A DNA stretch of 64,000 nucleotides, taken from Escherichia coli phage phiS. Within the stretch, counting starts at the first letter, position 1. Every line of letters starts with the position of its first letter. A program made the position numbers and the translations under genes. The stretch lies in the sequence record PP449093.1. One strand, 5' to 3'. The notes under the pieces are model-generated. The model saw only the letters and a program-made list of their open reading frames with translations, had not been told where the DNA came from and made no database searches. Positions 1,425 through 39,389 of the stretch are shown piece after piece.

Positions 1425-1451
1425 AGCCGATCCGAAAGGGTCGGCTTTTTC
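1425..1451 (+). terminator. Intrinsic terminator after nrdD
   Basis: Hairpin agccga-tccgaaaggg-tcggct followed by TTTTT. Confidence 0.6.
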
Positions 1452-1462
1452 GTTTTGGGGTG

Positions 1463-1490
1463 TTGACAACATGATTAGCTAATGTATAAT
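1463..1490 (+). promoter_or_regulatory. Sigma70-like early promoter (TTGACA, 16-nt spacer, TATAAT), followed by a conserved CATCGAAAACAA leader
   Basis: TTGACA at 1463-1468 and TATAAT at 1485-1490. The leader acatcgaaaacaacgagagga recurs at three other sites. Confidence 0.55.
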
Positions 1491-2603: not shown

Positions 2604-2607
2604 ATGC

Positions 2608-2636
2608 TTGACGGGGATCGCGAGATCCCCTATACT
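2608..2636 (+). promoter_or_regulatory. Early promoter with stem-loop in the spacer (TTGACG ... TATACT)
   Basis: TTGACG, then the 17-nt spacer ggggatcgcgagatcccc forming a hairpin, then TATACT. Confidence 0.5.
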
Positions 2637-2678
2637 ATATTCATCAAGACGAGATACAACTTTACAGGAGAATCAAAT

Positions 2679-2831
2679 ATGTGGACTTTACTGATTTGGG
2701 AAACTGAAAACGCACAAGTAGAAATCCGTGAATACGAATACCTAAGCCCAGCTTATCTATTAGCATCTCGCGGTGGTTACTATAAAGCGCAGATTGTAAA
2801 CGAGTTCGGGGTAATTGAATATGAGTTCTGA
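2679..2831 (+). CDS. Hypothetical small protein (50 aa)
   Basis: ATG at 2679 after RBS AGGAG. It overlaps the nrdG start. Confidence 0.35.
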   Translation: MWTLLIWETENAQVEIREYEYLSPAYLLASRGGYYKAQIVNEFGVIEYEF

Positions 2832-3324
2832 TACATACGGCAAACTACGCTATGCCGATATTAAAGATTGTGATATGGTTAACGGTGAGGGAGTGAGAGT
2901 CTCCCTTTACGTTACCGGATGTTCACACGCATGTGATGGTTGCTTTAATGCTAGCCTACTCAATCCTAAGAACGGGGAACCATTCACCGATGATACAATG
3001 GGATTGATTCTGGATCTGCTTAGACCTGATTTTATTCAGGGGCTAACATTCTTAGGTGGCGATCCACTGTATAAACGCAATTTAAAGGGTGTACAGCGGA
3101 TCATCGATGAAGTAAAATCATGGATGCCAAATAAAGATATTTGGCTATGGTCTGGTTATACCCTTGACCAATTGAATGATGAGCAAAGAAAAATTGTAGA
3201 ATCAGTTGACATGTTCATCGATGGGCGTTATATTAAAGATATGCCAACGAAGAAGCCGTGGCGGGGGTCTGACAATCAAGTACAATACAAGATTGTTAAT
3301 AGTATTCCAGTGAAAATTATTTGA
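2815..3324 (+). CDS. nrdG: Anaerobic ribonucleotide reductase activating protein NrdG (radical SAM)
   Basis: CxxxCxxC cluster GCSHACDGC, then KDIWLWSGY and IDGRYIKDMPTKKPWRGSDNQ, matching T4 NrdG as I recall it. Adjacent to nrdD. Confidence 0.85.
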   Translation: MNMSSDTYGKLRYADIKDCDMVNGEGVRVSLYVTGCSHACDGCFNASLLNPKNGEPFTDDTMGLILDLLRPDFIQGLTFLGGDPLYKRNLKGVQRIIDEVKSWMPNKDIWLWSGYTLDQLNDEQRKIVESVDMFIDGRYIKDMPTKKPWRGSDNQVQYKIVNSIPVKII

Positions 3325-3334
3325 GGTGATTATT

Positions 3335-3859
3335 ATGGAATGGGAAGTTGGTAAAACTTACAAGATTGAATGCGAAGCGTCGAAAGCCGAACTGACTAAA
3401 TTTTCGTCGTCTATTAACAGATGTATTGTTGACTTGTTGGCTGGTCGCCCGTTTAGGGTAGAAGACCTTGACGATGATGGTGATGTTAGAGAAATTACTA
3501 TTATTGGTAGTAATTTCGACTCTATGACGTTAAAAGAATCCCCTATTGGCTGTTCCGGTGTGTGGTTTTGGTCGGGTGAGCGTCGTTTCTTTACCGAAGT
3601 TACTATTGAACCTAAGATTCCAGATTCGGAAGAAAAAGAAGACCTAACTTTAGAACGCCTGGGTCTGCTTATGGAAGCCTACGACATTCAGTTGATCGAT
3701 AAGATGGGGTTACATAATAGCATTGCCAAAATTACTACCCTAGAAGGTATTAAGAGCGTACTGGATGGTATGCCTAGCCGGATCGGTGCTATCCGAGAAT
3801 ACAAACAAACGCGCGACCGTATGATCCAATTAGAATCACGTATCAAAAATGAGAGATGA
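3335..3859 (+). CDS. Paralog family member 1 (WExGKTY ... RRFFxEV domain), function unknown
   Basis: Starts MEWEVGKTYKIE and contains WFWSGERRFFTEV. RBS GAGGTGA. Shares its domain with the next three genes. Confidence 0.65.
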   Translation: MEWEVGKTYKIECEASKAELTKFSSSINRCIVDLLAGRPFRVEDLDDDGDVREITIIGSNFDSMTLKESPIGCSGVWFWSGERRFFTEVTIEPKIPDSEEKEDLTLERLGLLMEAYDIQLIDKMGLHNSIAKITTLEGIKSVLDGMPSRIGAIREYKQTRDRMIQLESRIKNER

Positions 3860-3863
3860 TATT

Positions 3864-4328
3864 ATGAAATGGGAAGCTGGTAAGACCTATGCGTGGAAAG
3901 ATGTAAAAGATGCAAACCAATTTTTTAAATGGTATGATGTTGATTATTTGAAATATCTGCGATTACCGTTTAAAGTTGCGTCGGTTGATGCGAAAAAAGG
4001 ATACGTGCGGTCTGTTTATCTTCATGATGGAACTTATATGAGTTCAACCGATGTAGGTCTATCTTGTTGGTTTCTGGATCATGACCGTAGCAGATTTGAA
4101 GAAATTATTATTCCAGAAGAATCTAAATTAATTGATCTTCTCAAGTTGGCGATGGATAATTATAAAATCCGCTTTGAATGCAAATCACATGCGGCTATCG
4201 GTGCTAACGCCTTGCGTCATATCTCCAGTTTTGAAGAGTTGAAAGATTTTCTTGACAAAATGCCGGAAAGGGTGCAAGCTATACAGGAAGCAGAGAAAGC
4301 ATTAAACGAACTTGATAAAATCGGTTAA
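3864..4328 (+). CDS. Paralog family member 2
   Basis: Starts MKWEAGKTYAWKD and contains CWFLDHDRSRFEEI. C-terminal helical tail FLDKMPERVQ. Confidence 0.65.
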   Translation: MKWEAGKTYAWKDVKDANQFFKWYDVDYLKYLRLPFKVASVDAKKGYVRSVYLHDGTYMSSTDVGLSCWFLDHDRSRFEEIIIPEESKLIDLLKLAMDNYKIRFECKSHAAIGANALRHISSFEELKDFLDKMPERVQAIQEAEKALNELDKIG

Positions 4329-4340
4329 GGGGAATATATT

Positions 4341-5165
4341 ATGAAATGGGAAATTGGTAAAACTTACACCTGGAAAGACGAAAACGCTAAAACTGAGTTT
4401 ATTACTAACGGAGAAGGTGTTCTTTCTCCACTTAACAGCGATATTAGTGCAGCTATTGGTGACACGCCATTTACCATCATCGAGATCGATGGCAACGGTT
4501 GGATTAATGCAATAGAGCTAGACGGTGTTTATCATACGGCGAAAACTGCTACAGGAAAAGACATTTGGACTGCAACATATTTCTTTAGTCCATTCGATAG
4601 AAAATTCTTTCGTGAAGTTGAAGAAGTTCCCCAGAAATGGGAAGTTGGTAAAACTTATACTTGGAAAGATGCGAATGCTATGACCGACTTCTGTCATTAT
4701 GCTGAAAACGTATCTAATCTTAATTATGTTATTGCACGAGCAATAAATTATAGACCTTTTACTGTTAAAAATGTTAGTCCATGTGGGCAAATTGATGTAA
4801 TTGAAATTGATGGTAAAGACCATACTCTAATGAGCGCAACCGAAGATAGAGACCATAAAGGAACTAGCTGGTTTATTGATTCTGATAGAAAATTCTTTCG
4901 TGAAGTAGAAGAATTGGAAGTTATAACCACTGATTCTAAAATCGTTGGACAGTTGAAACGTCTGTTTAGTAGTCGTTACGGCCTGACAATGGTTAAATTT
5001 GGCGAAGCAAATGAAGGTAAAACCTTTGAACGTTTCGATGACTTCATTACAGCACTTGACAAGATGGATGAAATCATGCAAGATCGCCAGAAGATTAAAG
5101 ACCTTCAAGAAGACATTAAACGTCGTGAAGTTGAATTTTTGATTGGTAAAGAGCGAGGTTGGTAA
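4341..5165 (+). CDS. Paralog family member 3, carrying two tandem copies of the domain
   Basis: MKWEIGKTYTWKD...FDRKFFREVEEV, then a second copy KWEVGKTYTWKD...SDRKFFREVEEL. Confidence 0.7.
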   Translation: MKWEIGKTYTWKDENAKTEFITNGEGVLSPLNSDISAAIGDTPFTIIEIDGNGWINAIELDGVYHTAKTATGKDIWTATYFFSPFDRKFFREVEEVPQKWEVGKTYTWKDANAMTDFCHYAENVSNLNYVIARAINYRPFTVKNVSPCGQIDVIEIDGKDHTLMSATEDRDHKGTSWFIDSDRKFFREVEELEVITTDSKIVGQLKRLFSSRYGLTMVKFGEANEGKTFERFDDFITALDKMDEIMQDRQKIKDLQEDIKRREVEFLIGKERGW

Positions 5166-5166
5166 T

Positions 5167-5664
5167 ATGTTTGTTGATGGTAATATGTTTGTTGTTGGTA
5201 TGACCTATCAGTGGAAAAACGAGCGAGCGCGGAAAGCCTTTGCAACCAGTGTTGCAAATGATGCAATAGCAGACTTTATCGGTGACCGTACATTTAAAGT
5301 TATCGCTTTTGAAAAAATTGCGTCAGATATCGAATATGTTTCTGCGATTGAAATTGATGGAAAAACATACACCTGTCGAGATGTTGATGATGTACGGGAA
5401 TACGCGCACAACTGGTTTTTGCAATCCGAAGAACGTTATTTTAAAGTGGTGTCGTCAGAACTGACTACTGATGCAATGTTGGAACAATTTTTCAACAACT
5501 ACGAAGTTTCTGTACGTCGCTATGGCGAAGAAGAAGTGTTTAAAATCGATGATTACAATCAGTTTAAACGAGTATTCGCCACTAAGTTACAGCGTGATTT
5601 TGAACGCGAGAATCGAATCAAGGAACTGGAAGAAGAACTAGAAAGATTAAAGGCTGAGAAATGA
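5167..5664 (+). CDS. Paralog family member 4 (divergent)
   Basis: MFVDGNMFVVGMTYQWKNE...NWFLQSEERYFKVV with a coiled-coil tail. The gene starts with an 18-nt near-tandem duplication. Confidence 0.6.
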   Translation: MFVDGNMFVVGMTYQWKNERARKAFATSVANDAIADFIGDRTFKVIAFEKIASDIEYVSAIEIDGKTYTCRDVDDVREYAHNWFLQSEERYFKVVSSELTTDAMLEQFFNNYEVSVRRYGEEEVFKIDDYNQFKRVFATKLQRDFERENRIKELEEELERLKAEK

Positions 5665-5930
5665 TCGAGATATACGGCATACCGAAAGAGGCTTATCATT
5701 GTTATGGTTGTATTAGTGCAATGAAGCTACTGGATGATCTGGGTATTCCGTATACACTTAAACCAGTATTCAAGCAGGTCGGGGTTGACATTATTCCCGA
5801 CCGTGATATGATTGAAGAACTGGCGGGGAGGCTGAACTCAAAGAGCCTCCGGTTTGTATACCCCCAGATATTCATTGACAACGAGCACATTGGAGGCTAT
5901 AAAGAACTGAGGGCGATTTATGATTATTGA
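5661..5930 (+). CDS. nrdC: Glutaredoxin/thioredoxin-like protein NrdC
   Basis: 89 aa with CYGC redox motif and glutaredoxin-like C-terminus ...IGGYKEL. T4-like position near the nrd genes. Confidence 0.75.
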   Translation: MIEIYGIPKEAYHCYGCISAMKLLDDLGIPYTLKPVFKQVGVDIIPDRDMIEELAGRLNSKSLRFVYPQIFIDNEHIGGYKELRAIYDY

Positions 5931-6078
5931 GAATTTAGTTTCGGTATTCATTATTGCTTTATTTGCTATAATGGCTTTACCGTTGAAGAAGTGTAAACAC
6001 TGTAACGGAACAGGATTGCGTGGTGATGGGTGTTGCGCTCATTGTCATGGATCTGGTAAAGTAAGTATCATTAAGTAA
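5920..6078 (+). CDS. Small membrane-anchored protein with DnaJ-type CxxCxGxG zinc-finger repeats (52 aa)
   Basis: My own translation, not in the track: hydrophobic N-terminus VSVFIIALFAIMALP, then CKHCNGTGLRGDGCCAHCHGSGK. Start overlaps the nrdC stop. Confidence 0.4.
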   Translation: MIIENLVSVFIIALFAIMALPLKKCKHCNGTGLRGDGCCAHCHGSGKVSIIK

Positions 6079-6099: not shown

Positions 6100-6387
6100 A
6101 TGTTAGTACACAATGCAATCGCACACATGGTTTATTCTCGATTTGGGCGCAGGGAAGAAATCAATATTACCGACGCAGATTTAGATCTGATGCAAGTCGA
6201 AGGCCAGACATATCTGAAAAATAACGGCGTGAATATCGGTAAAGCGCGTGTGCGTGAATTGTTGGTTGAATATATTCTCTCTGAATTTGGCATTAGTGCT
6301 TTCGGTGTGAAAGAGCTTGCACCTAAGCGCGAAATTTCTGATAAAATGATCAAGAAATGCCAGAAAGCACGACGTAAGGGTTTCTAA
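6100..6387 (+). CDS. Hypothetical protein (95 aa)
   Basis: ATG at 6100 after GAGGAA. Confidence 0.5.
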   Translation: MLVHNAIAHMVYSRFGRREEINITDADLDLMQVEGQTYLKNNGVNIGKARVRELLVEYILSEFGISAFGVKELAPKREISDKMIKKCQKARRKGF

Positions 6388-7856
6388 TGAAGATTGAAAC
6401 ATTAATCGCATTGCCAGCGGCGGGGAAAACTGATGCTATACTTTCCCACGTCCTAGAGACAAAAGAAAAAGCGGTTATTGCTTCGCCATCTCGTGTTTTA
6501 AGTGAACAATCTTACAATAAGTTTAAAAGAATGGGCGGTCGTGCTGTCTTGATCGATAGCACAAGACTAAGAAGCCTTAAGACAGTGCAAGCGTCGATAA
6601 TGCAATCAGTTAAAGACGGTGCTGATGTGATATTCATTACACATACAGCGTTATCTAATATGGAACGTTCAAAAATGTTTGGTGAATATGCTCTTTACAT
6701 TGATGAAGTTCCTCAACTGGTTGAATTTAATGAGTATCCGTTTAAGTCTAATCTTGAACTTATCACGAAGCATTGCGAACCAATCGCCGACGAATCGGAA
6801 TGCCTACAGAACTTAGTTCTAAAAGACTCTGAGAAGGCCGCTATCAAAGAAAAGATAGAAAGTGCAAAGGATGGTACTGATATGATCGATTCTTCTCTTA
6901 GAGGGCTTTATGAGGCGTTATTAGAGAAGAAAATCAACGTTATGGTAAAACATAACGAAGGACACCGGAAGAATGGGTCGAAAATTGTTTTCTTGAACGA
7001 TAACAAACACGGTACGTGGGGAGACTTTAAAAAGGTTACGATAGCATGTGCAAATCTCTTTGATACATATAGTGGGAAGTATCTACGATACTATGCAAAT
7101 TGCGATTTTGTTCCGAGTGCGCTAGAATCCAGACTATATTTCAAAGAGTATAAAAATACAGATAGAGTTAATATCATCCTTATGACGGACTCCGAACGAT
7201 GGTCGCGTCACCAGTCAGAAACAAACAATACCTTTGAACGTCTTGTTGATATGGTTAAAAATGAATGTGGTGATGACTTCATTTATACCGTTAATCGGGA
7301 CCGTGAAGCGTGTACAAATGGTATTGGTGAGCGGATACCTTACGGATCTTATGGTCTTAACTCTTACATTCATCATAAAAATGTTGCTGTGATGTTCAGC
7401 TTTAACCCTCAACGATGGGAGATTGATATTTTAAAAGGTCTTGCTAATAGTTGTGATCTCCCGACAAATGAGTTTTTGAAAGCGCGTCATGTGTCTGATT
7501 ATCTGGAACCAGCATTTCAATTATGTTTGCGTTGTAACCTGAGAGACAACGAGAGCAAGGAGAATGTTAATCTATATGTTCCTGATTGGGCGTTGGTGGA
7601 TTATCTAAAAACGTTTCTACCTAATGCCAATGTAATAACAGACCGAATGATTCCGCTAGAATGTGGTGAGCGTAAAGGGCGAAAATCATTTAAAAAGATG
7701 TTCGACTTTAACGAGCAAGAGAATGCAAGATTTAACGGATTTAAGTACCGCATGAAGAAAAAAGGAAAAACTCTTGATCCGTCTGACGGTGAATCAGTAG
7801 AGATGGTTAGAGTGTGGATAACTAAGCAAAGAAAGTATAATGGCAATGGGGAATAG
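6387..7856 (+). CDS. P-loop NTPase of unknown function (489 aa)
   Basis: Walker A-like LPAAGKT near the N-terminus and Walker B-like ALYIDEV. No assignable family. Confidence 0.65.
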   Translation: MKIETLIALPAAGKTDAILSHVLETKEKAVIASPSRVLSEQSYNKFKRMGGRAVLIDSTRLRSLKTVQASIMQSVKDGADVIFITHTALSNMERSKMFGEYALYIDEVPQLVEFNEYPFKSNLELITKHCEPIADESECLQNLVLKDSEKAAIKEKIESAKDGTDMIDSSLRGLYEALLEKKINVMVKHNEGHRKNGSKIVFLNDNKHGTWGDFKKVTIACANLFDTYSGKYLRYYANCDFVPSALESRLYFKEYKNTDRVNIILMTDSERWSRHQSETNNTFERLVDMVKNECGDDFIYTVNRDREACTNGIGERIPYGSYGLNSYIHHKNVAVMFSFNPQRWEIDILKGLANSCDLPTNEFLKARHVSDYLEPAFQLCLRCNLRDNESKENVNLYVPDWALVDYLKTFLPNANVITDRMIPLECGERKGRKSFKKMFDFNEQENARFNGFKYRMKKKGKTLDPSDGESVEMVRVWITKQRKYNGNGE

Positions 7857-23347: not shown

Positions 23348-23983
23348 ATGATCGCTAATGCTTTACCGCCAAAATGGATCGTAAGTCGCTTTTATACTCT
23401 CAAGGAAGGTAACGCACCTGATGGTCGTCCGATCCGAGATCTGTTTCTGGAGATGACTACAGCCGAAGCACAGTTTTATAATGATCTGACAGACGATAAG
23501 CCATTTCTCGTAAATTCGGTGGACCTTGATGGGAATGTCACATCAATTATCACGCATGATGGAACACTGAAAAATATTACTTCTCTGCGTGATCACGGTT
23601 GGGAAATTGCTTGTGTATTTCCTGCGGATGTACGCGGATTCTTTGATGAGGTATCTGACATTAAAGTAAATGCACTGGAACCATATGACGAGATCCCACC
23701 ACTGAAAGAAGAAAAAGAGTTGACACCGGAAGATGTAGATAGTACACTACACCCCGACCAATTTAAGAAGATTAGCGGTTTATGGACTGTTACCTTGTAT
23801 CCAACCGCATTAGGTCTAGAATTGGGTATGTCAACTTATTCTGATATTGATAACTGGAATAAGAGTATTGATAAAGATGTTGAAAAACAGCGAAATAATG
23901 CTAAAATGCAACTTAAAGAGAAACGCAAAGATCTTGAACGACAACTGAAAGAAACAAAACATTTGCTTTCTACATTCGCTTGA
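23348..23983 (+). CDS. Hypothetical protein (211 aa)
   Basis: ORF from the track, preceded by a GC hairpin gcgccctgcggggcgc. Confidence 0.55.
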   Translation: MIANALPPKWIVSRFYTLKEGNAPDGRPIRDLFLEMTTAEAQFYNDLTDDKPFLVNSVDLDGNVTSIITHDGTLKNITSLRDHGWEIACVFPADVRGFFDEVSDIKVNALEPYDEIPPLKEEKELTPEDVDSTLHPDQFKKISGLWTVTLYPTALGLELGMSTYSDIDNWNKSIDKDVEKQRNNAKMQLKEKRKDLERQLKETKHLLSTFA

Positions 23984-35007: not shown

Positions 35008-37116
35008 ATGAAAATGCATATTGATAATGAAGAAGTATTTGGTAGTGACCTGAGCGGTGCGGTTGATTTTTCACTGAAAGCAAGTAGCAAGGCTTTTATG
35101 GTGCTTTCTAAGAATACCTATCAATATTGTGAGCGTGCTTGCGTCCGTGAATATTCATGTAATGCTACCGACACTCACAAAGAAGCCGGAACCTTAGACC
35201 GTCCGTTTGATATTCATTTACCGACTGCAATCGAACCGTATTTTTCTGTGCGTGATTATGGTACTGGTATTCCGTCTAAGAAAGAATTAGAACAACTGTT
35301 TACGGTTTACTTTGAATCAACAAAAGACCAGACTAATGACTATATCGGATCTTTTGGTTTAGGTGCGAAGTCTGCGTATAGCTATACCGACACCTTTACA
35401 ATCGTAAACTATTACAATGGTCGCGCTTATGGCTTTACAGCATTTGTGCAAAACTCTATGCCGAAAATGGTGCAGATTTTCGACGAACCGACCTATGAAG
35501 ACAATGGTCTGAAAATCACTATTCCGGTGAAAGAAAAAGACATTCAGACATGGCATCGAGAAGCGCAATTTGTACTGCGTCATTTTGGGGAACACAAACC
35601 TAATATCAATGCAATCGAAATTAATTATTTCCCTAGCTTTGATAATTATTATGTGTGTAATGGGCGTGATAACGATTCCTATGTAGTATATGCAATCATG
35701 GGTAAGATTCAGTATCCGATCCCGTATGAATATGTTCGCGGAACATGGTTAGAAGCTGTAAACCGCCAGCACCAGACCATTTACATTAATTTTGAGTTGG
35801 GTGATCTGGACCTGATGCCATCGCGTGAAGAAGTTCACTTGTCAATTGAGACTAAAGCGAACATCGAAAAACGTATTGCAGAAATCAATGAAATGATGTT
35901 GGAAAAGGTCAAAGAGAAGATCGCCAACATTAAAACAGAGCGTAAACTTGCGCAATTTATGAGCGAGTATTCATCGACTCAACGCAATATTATTAGCAAG
36001 ATGGGTAAGATCGGACAATGGGATGATCCGGTAGCAATCTATAATAAGTTTGTGAATGCGGGTAAAGATTCGCCTAATGACGTAGAAGGTCAGGTGTATA
36101 CTCTGTATCGTACTCGTCACACAATCAGTAAATTGCGCCCTGCTTTCGTTAGAAGTCAATACAACATTACGCATTTTGTATGGATGCATAAAGAAGATAT
36201 TCTGTGTGTAATTGATGATACCGATAAACCGAAACTGCGTGCACTGACTCTTAACGGCATGGTCCAGGAATACGGAATCAATAAAAAGGTACTTGTGTTC
36301 CGTCAGCGCAACGAAAAACATATGGAGACTTTCGAGTACATCAAACAGTATTATGATGATTCTGAAATGACCGTGATTAAAGTGTCTGAGGCCGATGATC
36401 TGCGTGCTAAAGCAGTTAAACCGGAGAAGACCGAGCGTACACAACATGAAGCGACTCCTAAGCTGCCTAACGTGTATATCATGGAAAAGATTGGTGACAG
36501 TTGGCATAAAACCAGCCATCACATGAAAGCGGCAGAGATTCGCGAGTTATCAGGCTTGCACATGTTCCGCGTAGGTGATGCATTCGAAAGCCGTAGTCGT
36601 AAATCGATCCATAGTGAAAATACATTACACACGGCGCTTGACTACTTCGGGGTAACAAAGTATATTATTACCCGTAACGAGACACAAAAATATCTCGTTG
36701 ACGAACAATTGGAATGTGCGCTAGAATTTGTTCGCGGTAAGCTGGCTGGTCTGGCTAAGAAGGTTAAGACCAATCATCTGGGGTATGGCGAATATCTGGG
36801 TGTGATCACTATGTTGTTTCATGACGATGAACTAGAACGCTGTGTTCCAGAATTTATTGACAGACTGTACGGTCGTCATTATAATAAAGAGGTTTCCAAG
36901 TTACTCCTTCGCACCCGTTGGATTATGGACGAAGAAACTAAAAAGATTTGTGATGAAAAATTCACGGCAGCAAACGAACGAATTAAAGCAGTTTGTGCGA
37001 AGTTTAAAGAGAATAGCCCGTTACTGTATGATATTGTAGATAACTGGTATCGTATTCTGCATAACGACAAACGCGCACAAGACTTTATGAAACTGGTTAA
37101 GAATGTTAAATTTTAA
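35008..37116 (+). CDS. rIIA: rIIA protein (GHKL-ATPase-like)
   Basis: 702 aa with DYGTGIP and GSFGLGAKS motifs; sits between 39 and rIIB as in T4. Confidence 0.85.
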   Translation: MKMHIDNEEVFGSDLSGAVDFSLKASSKAFMVLSKNTYQYCERACVREYSCNATDTHKEAGTLDRPFDIHLPTAIEPYFSVRDYGTGIPSKKELEQLFTVYFESTKDQTNDYIGSFGLGAKSAYSYTDTFTIVNYYNGRAYGFTAFVQNSMPKMVQIFDEPTYEDNGLKITIPVKEKDIQTWHREAQFVLRHFGEHKPNINAIEINYFPSFDNYYVCNGRDNDSYVVYAIMGKIQYPIPYEYVRGTWLEAVNRQHQTIYINFELGDLDLMPSREEVHLSIETKANIEKRIAEINEMMLEKVKEKIANIKTERKLAQFMSEYSSTQRNIISKMGKIGQWDDPVAIYNKFVNAGKDSPNDVEGQVYTLYRTRHTISKLRPAFVRSQYNITHFVWMHKEDILCVIDDTDKPKLRALTLNGMVQEYGINKKVLVFRQRNEKHMETFEYIKQYYDDSEMTVIKVSEADDLRAKAVKPEKTERTQHEATPKLPNVYIMEKIGDSWHKTSHHMKAAEIRELSGLHMFRVGDAFESRSRKSIHSENTLHTALDYFGVTKYIITRNETQKYLVDEQLECALEFVRGKLAGLAKKVKTNHLGYGEYLGVITMLFHDDELERCVPEFIDRLYGRHYNKEVSKLLLRTRWIMDEETKKICDEKFTAANERIKAVCAKFKENSPLLYDIVDNWYRILHNDKRAQDFMKLVKNVKF

Positions 37117-37127
37117 GAGGTGATATT

Positions 37128-37259
37128 ATGACTAAACTGACCGCTATCCAGAAAGAAACCATCCGTAAACAATACGCTCGCGGCTTGACTAAAGGCGAAC
37201 TGGCACGAATCTATAATGTATCAGACCGCACAATCCGCAAGGTTGTAGAAGCAAAATAA
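37128..37259 (+). CDS. Small helix-turn-helix protein (43 aa)
   Basis: My own translation; RBS GAGGTGA. GLTKGELARIYNVSDRTIRKVV is a classic HTH. Confidence 0.4.
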   Translation: MTKLTAIQKETIRKQYARGLTKGELARIYNVSDRTIRKVVEAK

Positions 37260-37321
37260 TTCTGGTATAATGATGTGAATCGGGCGGCGATAGTCGCCCA
37301 ACTAATAGAGGAATGAATACT

Positions 37322-38314
37322 ATGACTAAAGCAAAAATCACCGTCTCTGACCGTAACGTTCAATGCCTGGATTCTGCGAAACAAATCAAACTGGCTAAAC
37401 AGTGGGGCGAAGGTAAGTTTACTACCCGCGAAGCACTTGCGGCAGCATTTGGTGTATCTCGTCGTACTGCTTCCCGTGTATTACTGATTCAGAAAGACGC
37501 AGTAGCGGAAGGTCGCAAGGCACTAGAAAAACGTAAAGCACGCCGTAAAACAAGTAAAGGAAAAGGCGGTGAACGCGCAAAAAAGCCCGTGACTACTACC
37601 TCAAAAATCGTAGCCATAGCCTCAACTAAGTTTATTACTATTACATGCGGTGACATTGTTTATATTGCTGATCCATCACATGTTAACTTTAAGGAAGCAC
37701 TGGAAGCAGTTAAGCAGAATGATTTTATTAAAGCAATTACGCTGATTGACATTAAGAAAGCGGTTGAAGTATATTATCACGGCGCTTTCCGTATCGAAAA
37801 TGGTATTGTGTATTATCATAATATTGTTCTTGATAATAATCTGACTCGTCGAGTTGTTGAGTCTATTAAAGAGAATAAGCCATATACGCACTATCTGAAC
37901 TTCTTTGAGAAGTGCAAGAAAAACCCTAGCCGTAAGGCGGTAGATCGTCTGTTTGACTTCTTAGAACACAACGACATTGAGATCGGGGAAGATGGTTGTT
38001 TCTATGCATGGAAACGTGTTGATGTTGATTATAAAGATTTCTTTACGCATACGTTTGATAATAGCCCAGGGCGCACGGTTAAAATGAAGCGTAAAGACGT
38101 TGGCCCAGATGATGATCGCACTTGCTCTAATGGCCTCCACGTTGCAGCGAAACACTATATTCCACACTATGGCGGTGGACGAGGCCGAATCATTAAATGT
38201 AAAGTTGATCCGCGTCACGTTGTAAGTATCCCGAAAGATTATGCGAATGCCAAAATGCGCTGTCATCGTTACTATGTGGTTGAAGATGTAACCGAAGGTT
38301 TTAGCCATTACTAA
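37322..38314 (+). CDS. rIIB: rIIB protein
   Basis: SRKAVDRLFDFLEHNDIEIGEDGCFYAWK...TCSNGLHVAAKHYIPHYG...DPRHVVSIPKDYANAKMRCHRYYVVEDVTE matches the T4 rIIB C-terminal region as I recall it. Confidence 0.85.
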   Translation: MTKAKITVSDRNVQCLDSAKQIKLAKQWGEGKFTTREALAAAFGVSRRTASRVLLIQKDAVAEGRKALEKRKARRKTSKGKGGERAKKPVTTTSKIVAIASTKFITITCGDIVYIADPSHVNFKEALEAVKQNDFIKAITLIDIKKAVEVYYHGAFRIENGIVYYHNIVLDNNLTRRVVESIKENKPYTHYLNFFEKCKKNPSRKAVDRLFDFLEHNDIEIGEDGCFYAWKRVDVDYKDFFTHTFDNSPGRTVKMKRKDVGPDDDRTCSNGLHVAAKHYIPHYGGGRGRIIKCKVDPRHVVSIPKDYANAKMRCHRYYVVEDVTEGFSHY

Positions 38315-38328
38315 CAGAGGAATTAATT

Positions 38329-38655
38329 ATGGTTGATATGAAAGTTACTTGCGAAAGTGCACATGTTGAAGTTGAAAGTAGCCAATATTCATTGCGTCCG
38401 TCCGGTCGCGTTACTGTGACTATGGATGATGTTGATTTGGTTAATAATGTTAGTGTTGAAGATATCGTTAATGAGTATGATCATAGCGAACTGCTAGACG
38501 CAATTCCTGAACATGTTGTGATCCAGCACGTAGTAAGCAATAATGATCCATCGACTTTCATTAAAGAATATGGCGCTGATGAAATGCTCGATGAAATTGG
38601 CGAAAAGATTGTTATTGCATGGCTTGAAAACAACGGCTATACTGTAGAACAATAA
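38329..38655 (+). CDS. Hypothetical highly acidic protein (108 aa)
   Basis: About 25 percent Asp/Glu and no Cys clusters; candidate DNA-mimic-type protein. Confidence 0.5.
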   Translation: MVDMKVTCESAHVEVESSQYSLRPSGRVTVTMDDVDLVNNVSVEDIVNEYDHSELLDAIPEHVVIQHVVSNNDPSTFIKEYGADEMLDEIGEKIVIAWLENNGYTVEQ

Positions 38656-38700
38656 TCAACATAGGCCGCTTTGCGCGGCCTTTCTTAGAGGGAATACATT

Positions 38701-38994
38701 ATGACGGTCACGGTTATTACCAAATACGACGACGAAAATGTGATTTACGGTGACGTGGTTGTTGTTCACGGTCGTAGCATGAAAGTTACTGGTAATTGTA
38801 AAGATGGTGCTATTATTTGCGGTGAATTGGTGAGAACAGTCAATCCTATCACCGACGAACAAAAGCGAGTTATTATCAGAAAACTTAAAGACAGTGGATA
38901 TTGTAACGTCGTGGTGATTCAAGAAAAAATTGAAGTAGGCCAGTTATACACAAACCAGAAAACAATTCCAGTATCAATGATAAAAGGCGGTTAA
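38701..38994 (+). CDS. Hypothetical protein (97 aa)
   Basis: ORF from the track; its 3' end lies inside a 30-bp tandem duplication. Confidence 0.5.
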   Translation: MTVTVITKYDDENVIYGDVVVVHGRSMKVTGNCKDGAIICGELVRTVNPITDEQKRVIIRKLKDSGYCNVVVIQEKIEVGQLYTNQKTIPVSMIKGG

Positions 38995-39025
38995 TTTCCA
39001 GTATCAATGATAAAAGGCGGTTAAT
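38966..39025. repeat. Perfect 30-bp tandem direct duplication (two copies)
   Basis: ttccagtatcaatgataaaaggcggttaat occurs twice back to back, spanning the stop codon of the 38701 ORF. Confidence 0.85.
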
Positions 39026-39026
39026 A

Positions 39027-39389
39027 ATGCTAGGTCATTCTAAAATAGAAGATTGCTCATTCAGAGCAATGAAAGATGATTTTTCAGTCCTGTACGCGTC
39101 TATCCGAGAGTTGTTTGTAGATTTTAAGCAATTCAGAGAATACAAAGGCGTTAAGATGCGGGAGTGGGTATTCTGGCCTTTCTATATCATTACTCTGTTT
39201 TCTATGGTATTTTGTTTTGTCGGGATCACGATCGCTAGCTTTGTTACTTGCGCTTTCCTGATTATCCGGTGTATCATGTTTGCTTTGATTGCTGCCCCGT
39301 TTATTGTTTCAATCCTTCCGTTAAAATGGCTATTGGATTGGGCTGATAAATCTGATAAAGTAAAGAATGTGATTTGTAAGCGTGTATGA
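39027..39389 (+). CDS. Integral membrane protein (120 aa); possible ac counterpart by position
   Basis: Two or three hydrophobic helices (FYIITLFSMVFCFVGITIASFVTCAFLII, ALIAAPFIVSILPL); directly upstream of gene 52. Confidence 0.5.
   Translation: MLGHSKIEDCSFRAMKDDFSVLYASIRELFVDFKQFREYKGVKMREWVFWPFYIITLFSMVFCFVGITIASFVTCAFLIIRCIMFALIAAPFIVSILPLKWLLDWADKSDKVKNVICKRV

Follow-up and report, generated by a model that had tools for sequence, protein, structure and literature searches.

Which protein family occupies the interval between nrdG and a glutaredoxin gene in Escherichia coli phage phiS, and what might its products do? The locus lies at positions 3335-5664 of a 64,000-nt stretch of sequence record PP449093.1 (the whole stretch is hereafter the window), where four successive, tightly packed open reading frames (ORFs) on the plus strand, here called g1 to g4, form an array. 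An initial annotation, made from the letters of the sequence, described four paralogous genes carrying five copies of a ~90-amino acid domain, two of them in the third gene, with every gene ending in a helical tail, and could not assign them to a known family. We identify the array proteins as members of the GoF/Frd.2/MotB.1 family of phage T4, and regard both this membership and an architecture of two modules, an N-terminal barrel (or head) and a C-terminal tail, as very likely. Our overall reading, that the array is a set of tandem paralogues of this family serving as non-structural accessory binding proteins of T4-type phages, is one that we hold with about even confidence.

Assignment to the GoF family

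goF, which encodes an early protein of T4, was discovered genetically in the 1970s, and what wild-type GoF does is still unknown. GoF (ComC-alpha), Frd.2 and MotB.1 have been described, from T4 alone, as a 'Tevenvirinae LSm-like fold family' (Kim et al., 2025; PMC12152347). We found g1 to g4 to match phrog_622 (E 1.9e-10, 2.5e-3, 9.6e-19 and 1.1e-6, respectively), and array genes to match the goF-named PHROGs 2980, 13003 and 8944 ('goF mRNA metabolism modulator') at E-values down to 1.7e-9. The relationship is reciprocal, in that T4 GoF and Frd.2 themselves belong to phrog_622 and GoF matches the array's own phrog_5347 at 6.5e-7. Aligned by hhalign, the five window domains matched residues 4-91 of T4 GoF with 94.6% probability (E 6e-8). 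A profile built without GoF, from the window domains and metagenomic relatives, was run against 880 six-frame ORFs from ~101 kb of T4 (the genome outside 1-4 kb and 77-141 kb) and recovered GoF (7e-15), Frd.2 (7e-8) and MotB.1 (6.5e-5), with nothing else significant. All 58 phage records matching region 3000-6000 (95-98.6% identity) belong to Krischvirus, among them RB49, Phi1, JSE and MIZ4, and the sole tblastn match outside this genus was a two-domain protein of Yersinia phage MHG19 whose gene occupies the goF position of T4, between dexA and gene 39. On the evidence of the PHROG matches, hhalign and the GoF-free profile, the domain that had been left without a family can be recognized as the N-terminal barrel of the GoF/Frd.2/MotB.1 family. 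Family and fold have already been published and the genes already grouped in PHROGs; the array adds members to a functionally unsolved family.

The array and T4 proteins share a homologous N-terminal barrel of ~90 amino acids with the motifs (W/F)E(V)xK.Y..K, PF(K/T)(V/I) and (W)F...(F/Y)F.EV, a C-terminal domain set apart by a flexible linker, an acidic overall character, a place among the non-structural genes of T4-type phages, and the SH3 domains of FeoA, IdeR and SloR as structural neighbours. They differ in the array tail, which has no detectable relation to the tails of GoF and Frd.2 (E 0.18-0.28), in location (between nrdG and nrdH, as against the goF, motB and frd loci), in number (four genes including a two-barrel protein, and ~12 domains per genome compared with 3 in T4), in the deep divergence of head alleles within one genus, and in having K or R in most domains where GoF has G84. 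At this G84 column, the second suppressor site (G84R), K or R stands in 4 of the 5 window domains and in 18 of 38 family domains; in the window domains the column falls in a DR(K/R)FF motif, for example at 4596-4610 and 4884-4898. Among 121 natural GoF orthologue clusters, Y occurs at position 25 in five and R at position 84 in two, these being the gain-of-function residues selected in the laboratory. Mapping of GoF D25 onto the window domains was rejected, the site lying in a loop column of variable length where hhalign (at low confidence there) and MAFFT disagree.

Other searches added little. No relevant match to the array proteins was obtained in Pfam, NCBIfam, PADLOC or Rfam; in Pfam, g1 matched no family at an E-value of 1 or below, and the matches of g2 to g4 were weak and unrelated. 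A PADLOC CARF_PIN match of g3 (E 0.0013, 16 bits), spanning the junction of barrel and tail, was judged spurious. PHROG, Pfam, PDB sequence and fold searches returned no structural protein, and a virion role was rejected accordingly. A first word-indexed protein search found Krischvirus proteins only, the same search with a 38-sequence alignment gave no matches, and with GoF it gave only orthologues at least 77% identical; an exhaustive HMMER search gave 39 matches, ~8 of them false positives, which are repeat proteins with weak partial matches (such as the RCC1-like P0036).

Five domain copies and their duplication

The first gene of the array, g1 (3335..3859, plus strand; 174 aa), is the orthologue of RB49p051 and carries a barrel at ~3335-3613 followed by a helical C-terminal domain; it matches phrog_5347 at E 1.5e-66. 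Next on the same strand come g2 (3864..4328; 154 aa; RB49p050), with a barrel at ~3864-4118, and g3 (4341..5165; 274 aa; RB49p049), which holds barrel a (4341-4631), barrel b (4632-4922) and a helical C-terminal domain (4923-5162). The last gene, g4 (5167..5664, plus strand; RB49p048), encodes 165 aa from the ATG at 5167 or 159 aa from a second ATG at 5185, with a barrel at ~5185-5460. All four RB49 orthologues (p051, p050, p049 and p048) are annotated 'hypothetical protein' and are flanked by nrdG (p052) and nrdH (p047). A coding role for antisense ORFs at the array was rejected, as the reverse-strand ORFs are short and without support.

The four paralogues and five domain copies of the initial annotation were borne out. 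G6, T8, Y9, F43, F81 and F89 are invariant in an alignment of the five N-terminal domains, and nine of the ten domain pairs align significantly by BLASTP (E 2e-4 to 3e-27), the exception being d2-d4 with a local match only; barrels a and b of g3 are 50% identical (E 3e-27). phrog_5347 matches all four proteins along their full length (E 1e-52 to 3e-92), with two matches to g3. The helical tails proposed for every gene are likewise homologous among themselves, since in leave-one-out profile tests the real score was reached by only 0-3 of 500 composition-matched shuffles. The array originated by tandem gene duplication together with an internal domain duplication.

Two short DNA repeats mark the array. 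A 30-nt direct repeat on the plus strand, GATAGAAAATTCTTTCGTGAAGTTGAAGAA, encodes DRKFFREVEE at the end of barrel a (4596..4625) and recurs at the end of barrel b (4884..4913); in a repeat search the two copies are 97% identical and spaced 288 nt apart. Phage E26 lacks barrel b, the missing segment lying exactly between the two repeats. This near-identity is confined to the 30-nt ends, and the internal duplication of g3, at 50% amino acid identity, is old, not fresh. The second repeat is an 18-nt tandem duplication at 5160..5200 (plus strand; Tandem Repeats Finder: period 18, 2.3 copies, 95% matches), which copies the junction between the g3 stop and the g4 start, TGGTAAT-ATGTTTGTTG (TGG TAA T ATG TTT GTT G), and gives g4 an extra MFVDGN when the first ATG is used. 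It is missing from the five other Krischviruses compared (RB49, E26, G5211, JK32 and FL04); two metagenomic variants, P0001 and P0006, do carry it. The repeat had been taken as a fresh duplication opening g4; it is real, but it is a small in-frame slippage polymorphism at the junction, uninformative on the expansion of the gene family and no trace of it.

Predicted structure and the possible ligand of the head

Barrel b and the tail of g3 were modelled by AlphaFold2 from a 30-sequence alignment, with a predicted local distance difference test (pLDDT) score of 86.1; a single-sequence model of g3 (pLDDT 45) was discarded. The barrel is predicted to run beta1, two helices, beta2-beta4, a loop and beta5 (strands at residues 8-11, 43-48, 54-59, 62-65 and 89-92; helices at 14-23 and 30-38), its five antiparallel strands forming a small N-terminal barrel of the kind that characterizes the GoF family. 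A linker at residues 96-99 (pLDDT <50), predicted to be disordered, joins it to a separate tail of ~70-80 aa composed of a helix, a beta-hairpin and an amphipathic helix of ~40 residues.

A structure search of BFVD with this model gave 66 matches at an E of 1e-3 or better, all of them uncharacterised phage proteins; the named ones belong nearly all to T4-like phages of Proteus, Edwardsiella, Pectobacterium, Aeromonas, Citrobacter, Morganella, Serratia and Klebsiella, with phAPEC8 in addition. Foldseek of the model against the PDB gave no significant match, and a profile search of PDB sequences found no solved structure related by sequence. With E-values that are not significant, the nearest structural neighbours of the model in the PDB appear to be SH3 domains of the FeoA/DtxR type and not Sm/Hfq. 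This agrees with the T4 protein, whose N-terminal barrel has FeoA and the SH3-like domains of IdeR and SloR as nearest PDB neighbours (PMC12152347). The likeness to FeoA (PF04023) and to the C-terminal SH3 domains of DtxR, IdeR and SloR is at the level of fold only: there is no sequence relationship (no Pfam FeoA match), the context is viral rather than cellular, and GoF is without the metal-binding histidines of FeoA/DtxR-type metalloregulators (PMC12152347).

We propose that the barrel, 'LSm-like' in the terms of Kim et al., would act as an SH3-like ligand-recognition head. The heads are acidic, with a net charge of -4 to -7 (g2 is 0), and the nearest folds are the FeoA/DtxR-type SH3 domains, which are protein-interaction barrels; because of these two features we tentatively favour a protein over RNA as the ligand, with a little less than even confidence.

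The main rival explanation is that the array encodes Hfq-like (LSm) RNA chaperones or modulators of mRNA stability, whose barrels bind phage or host transcripts and shield them from decay. It draws on the homology to GoF, as a reporter with the leader of gene 41 has a longer half-life with the D25Y mutant, and on the presence of Hfq among the structural neighbours reported for the GoF N-terminal domain (PMC12152347). The predicted five-stranded, strongly bent antiparallel sheet is similar in size to that of Hfq and Sm/LSm proteins, the K or R at the G84R-equivalent column means that the paralogues may natively resemble the gain-of-function state, and a sixth family member is encoded directly after gene 41. 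However, wild-type GoF and MotB.1 had little effect on the reporter, and no strong one, and AlphaFold3 gave no confident ring multimers of GoF (PMC12152347). Sm motifs are absent from the array proteins, as are Pfam LSM/Hfq matches and relevant NCBIfam matches. The acidic heads differ from basic Hfq (pI 10), the model inserts two helices between beta1 and beta2 where Sm proteins have a single N-terminal helix, and it is not obvious why head alleles should stay divergent if the targets were conserved RNAs. On balance we consider an RNA chaperone role unlikely.

Variable heads on constant tails

Sequence variation was compared across the window, RB49, E26, G5211, JK32 and FL04, and all array ORFs are intact in these six genomes. 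Minimum amino acid identity is 0.48 for the g1 head, 0.46 for the g2 head, 0.38 for barrel b of g3 and 0.57 for the g4 head, with proportions of synonymous differences (pS) of 0.64, 0.68, 0.61 and 0.61 and nonsynonymous to synonymous ratios (pN/pS) of 0.46, 0.56, 0.69 and 0.44, respectively. The tails of g1 to g4 do not fall below 0.93, 0.98, 0.97 and 0.87 (pS 0.07-0.5, pN/pS 0.05-0.16), and the flanking nrdG and nrdH not below 0.99 and 0.98 (pS 0.09; pN/pS 0.06 and 0.11). The suggestion that the family is fast-evolving therefore holds for the N-terminal domains, which are polymorphic, with alleles 38-57% identical beside tails and flanks at 87-99%. The same trend, though milder, is seen in 121 GoF orthologues, where mean pairwise identity is 0.84 for the N-terminal and 0.96 for the C-terminal domain.

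At the DNA level, identity is 96-100% over most of the region, dipping at the 18-nt insertion and two short segments, and falls sharply at domain boundaries to 24-60% across barrel-coding blocks. The g1 block is divergent in FL04; the g2 block in E26, G5211 and FL04 (27-60% over 3880-4125); the block of g3 barrel b in JK32 and FL04; and the g4 block in RB49 and JK32 (51-76%), more mildly in E26 (76-84%). Since different phages carry different combinations of divergent blocks, the head alleles assort independently. In megablast searches of ~58 Krischvirus records, the window-type allele was found in 52 for g1, 29 for g2, 53 for g3 barrel b and 19 for g4, so that about half of the records have a g2 barrel allele unlike that of the window; the g4 head is the most polymorphic in the genus, its window-type allele being at least 95% identical in only 8 of the ~58. 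The closest relative of each allele is its positional counterpart and not another paralogue, for which reason conversion between paralogues was rejected as the source of the alleles. The barrel blocks in Krischvirus are old divergent alleles exchanged independently of the conserved tails and flanks.

Array variants were also seen. Matches to g3 are short (~540 bp) in ELT4 and AV108, as in E26. On a Krischvirus Logan contig (SRR11185258_147272; L015 3001-3938), g1 is fused to the end of g3 (the 154-aa P0020), g2 is missing and two ORFs stand in place of an intact g4, which may reflect either a real contraction of the array or a chimeric short-k-mer assembly over repeated sequence. Frameshifted or truncated variants of array genes occur among metagenomic sequences (P0009, P0013 and P0019 for g1, P0021 for g4, P0022 and P0023 for g2, and the g3-like P0026), some of the g1 variants ending in a lysine-rich, out-of-frame tail (…RKKKKKT) that suggests a frameshift; these could be sequencing errors or natural pseudogenes.

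Could the array be largely neutral filler, its paralogues being dispensable, under no selection for a specific function and free to drift and recombine in a hyperplastic region, with the mosaic reflecting ordinary modular exchange of the T4 type? The near-saturated pS of the head blocks is consistent with imported DNA, and truncated and frameshifted variants do occur in metagenomes. Set against this are the intact ORFs of all six genomes, the strong purifying selection on the tails, a head pN/pS below 1, core fold residues conserved in all alleles, mosaic breakpoints at domain boundaries in four separate genes and, for GoF, ~20,000 copies per cell (PMC12152347). We judge this explanation quite improbable.

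The array as a proposed set of binding adaptors

The interpretation that we prefer is of non-structural accessory binding proteins in which a variable head sits on a constant tail as a binding adaptor, an arrangement for and against which we see the case as evenly balanced. The constant tail would probably dimerise through its long helix and carry a common activity; GoF and MotB.1 run partly as dimers (PMC12152347). The array would give the phage several specificities simultaneously, and the allelic diversity would point to targets that vary between hosts and are engaged early in infection, candidates being factors of exclusion or defence, or those components of the RNA-handling machinery that vary.

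Several points weigh against such a role. The family's only functional datum, stabilisation of mRNA by GoF(D25Y) (PMC12152347), points to RNA and not to protein. Dimerisation of the tail is suggested by a model of the monomer. Early expression is suggested by strand, position and sigma70-like consensus matches in the sequence, and such matches, 34 in all in the region, are barely more numerous than the shuffled expectation of 25.8 +/- 6. Finally, given the high pS of the heads, their divergence may stem from recombination with distant phages and not from selection. Mosaicism is in any case a property of the hyperplastic regions of T4-type genomes.

A more specific alternative is that these are dedicated anti-defence proteins or decoys, each head neutralising, or avoiding the triggering of, a different host immune or prophage exclusion system. 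An expanded family of seemingly dispensable genes at insertion points between core genes would suit this, as would head alleles kept at intermediate frequency among phages that share a host species, small acidic domains compatible with mimicry or protein binding, and an array content that varies through the missing barrel b of E26, ELT4 and AV108 and the possible g1::g3 fusion. PADLOC, Pfam and NCBIfam, however, reveal no similarity to a known defence or anti-defence family, and essentially all Krischvirus records have the four genes (at least 80% of region 3000-6000 is held by 56 of the 58), a constancy that is unusual for accessory anti-defence cargo. T4 frd.2, moreover, scored as a fitness gene in a laboratory host (PMC11879866), a hint that at least one family member has a core role. 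A dedicated anti-defence function is, in our estimate, doubtful.

Extent of the family in RB49, T4 and other phages

Family members are not limited to the array. A sixth domain copy in the window lies in a 211-aa 'Dc2'-like protein (23348..23983, plus strand), the orthologue of RB49p021 (Dc2), which matches the family profile at E 9.4e-8, phrog_16187 and, weakly, phrog_5347. Its gene is directly downstream of helicase gene 41, whose mRNA level is altered by T4 GoF(D25Y), an adjacency that may be coincidence; T4 gp61.2, similarly placed, gave no profile match and was rejected as a family member. In RB49 a second cluster lies just upstream of nrdD (RB49 36,433-39,070), a location just beyond the left end of the window, and comprises p057 (one barrel), p058 (392 aa, three barrels and a tail weakly similar to that of the array), p059 (one barrel) and p060 (90 aa, a barrel alone), of which p058 and p059 are annotated in RefSeq as 'goF mRNA metabolism modulator'. 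These four and Dc2 belong with the array to a common domain family within RB49, as more divergent paralogues. A profile scan puts the RB49 total at ~9 genes and 12 domains, around gene 41 and the anaerobic ribonucleotide reductase genes, with GoF-family arrays on both sides of the latter; no goF or motB was found between gene 39 and dexA.

In the scanned regions of T4 there are three members, and between its nrdG and nrdH lies nothing but the small 55.8 gene. Local arrays and proteins with several barrels are a repeated feature of the family: the goF locus of MHG19 (between dexA and gene 39; L008 1918-4744) contains an array of four family genes that together encode five barrels, one product being a two-barrel protein of 246 aa, and two or three barrels are also found in several metagenomic relatives. 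In the literature searched, neither the Krischvirus expansion nor the multi-barrel proteins had been described, and the same is true of the distinct conserved tail and the cassette-like polymorphism of the heads. The ~9 genes and 12 domains of RB49 against three members in T4, the independent assortment of divergent head alleles and the acidity of the heads appear to be new.

Genomic context

The array is flanked upstream by nrdG (2815-3324; Pfam Fer4_12, E 2e-43) and downstream by a gene for an nrdH-type glutaredoxin (5661-5930), the equivalent of RB49p047. The initial annotation had named this downstream gene nrdC, which in RB49 is a separate gene elsewhere (RB49p062), and had placed the array in the plastic nrdC region of T4-like phages. 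The part of this T4-type genome concerned is indeed plastic and non-structural, and it does hold an expanded family of paralogues, but the locus is the nrdG-nrdH interval.

Further upstream, a strong terminator-like hairpin stands directly 3' of nrdD (window 1425-1446) and is followed by a perfect sigma70 consensus promoter (12/12, TTGACA-16-TATAAT; 1463-1490, plus strand); an 11/12 match to the same consensus lies in the 3' end of nrdG (3206-3234), ~100 nt upstream of g1. The gene for a small DUF7170 protein (2604-2831, plus strand; Pfam E 2e-17) directly precedes nrdG and overlaps its start; the annotated start of the DUF7170 gene varies among Krischvirus records, giving 50 aa in some and 75 aa in others. 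On the other side of the array, between a 55.2-like gene and the late sigma factor gene 55, a plus-strand gene (6387-7856) encodes a 489-aa protein with a weakly DEAD-box/P-loop helicase-like N-terminus (Pfam DEAD, E 3e-6; phrog_2467) that is conserved in Krischvirus (RB49p044).

Implications for the goF problem

A bolder possibility, which we raise as improbable, is that the array and the cluster upstream of nrdD together form a phage-borne repertoire of interchangeable SH3-like recognition heads on constant dimerising tails. Heads would be shuffled between genomes as cassettes via conserved boundaries, a ATGAAATGGGAAGTTGGTAAAAC-type start and a GATAGAAAATTCTTTCGTGAAGT-type end, and the phage population would thereby keep many binding specificities against variable host factors. 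Should nothing come of such ideas, the region is an ordinary expanded family of hypothetical proteins, already in PHROGs. The Krischvirus locus makes the GoF question more tractable, offering nine paralogues, up to three barrels per protein and a clean split into variable head and constant tail. The natural head alleles, being at intermediate frequency, can be swapped and tested on host panels, and the paralogues with a native basic residue at the G84R suppressor position of GoF provide useful natural material. Were the repertoire to exist, the 50-year-old goF puzzle would become that of one member of a diversifying system for binding host factors, and not of an RNA chaperone; and if the heads are specificity modules, many 'hypothetical' early genes of T4-like phages, as represented by the 66 structural matches in BFVD, could be re-annotated.

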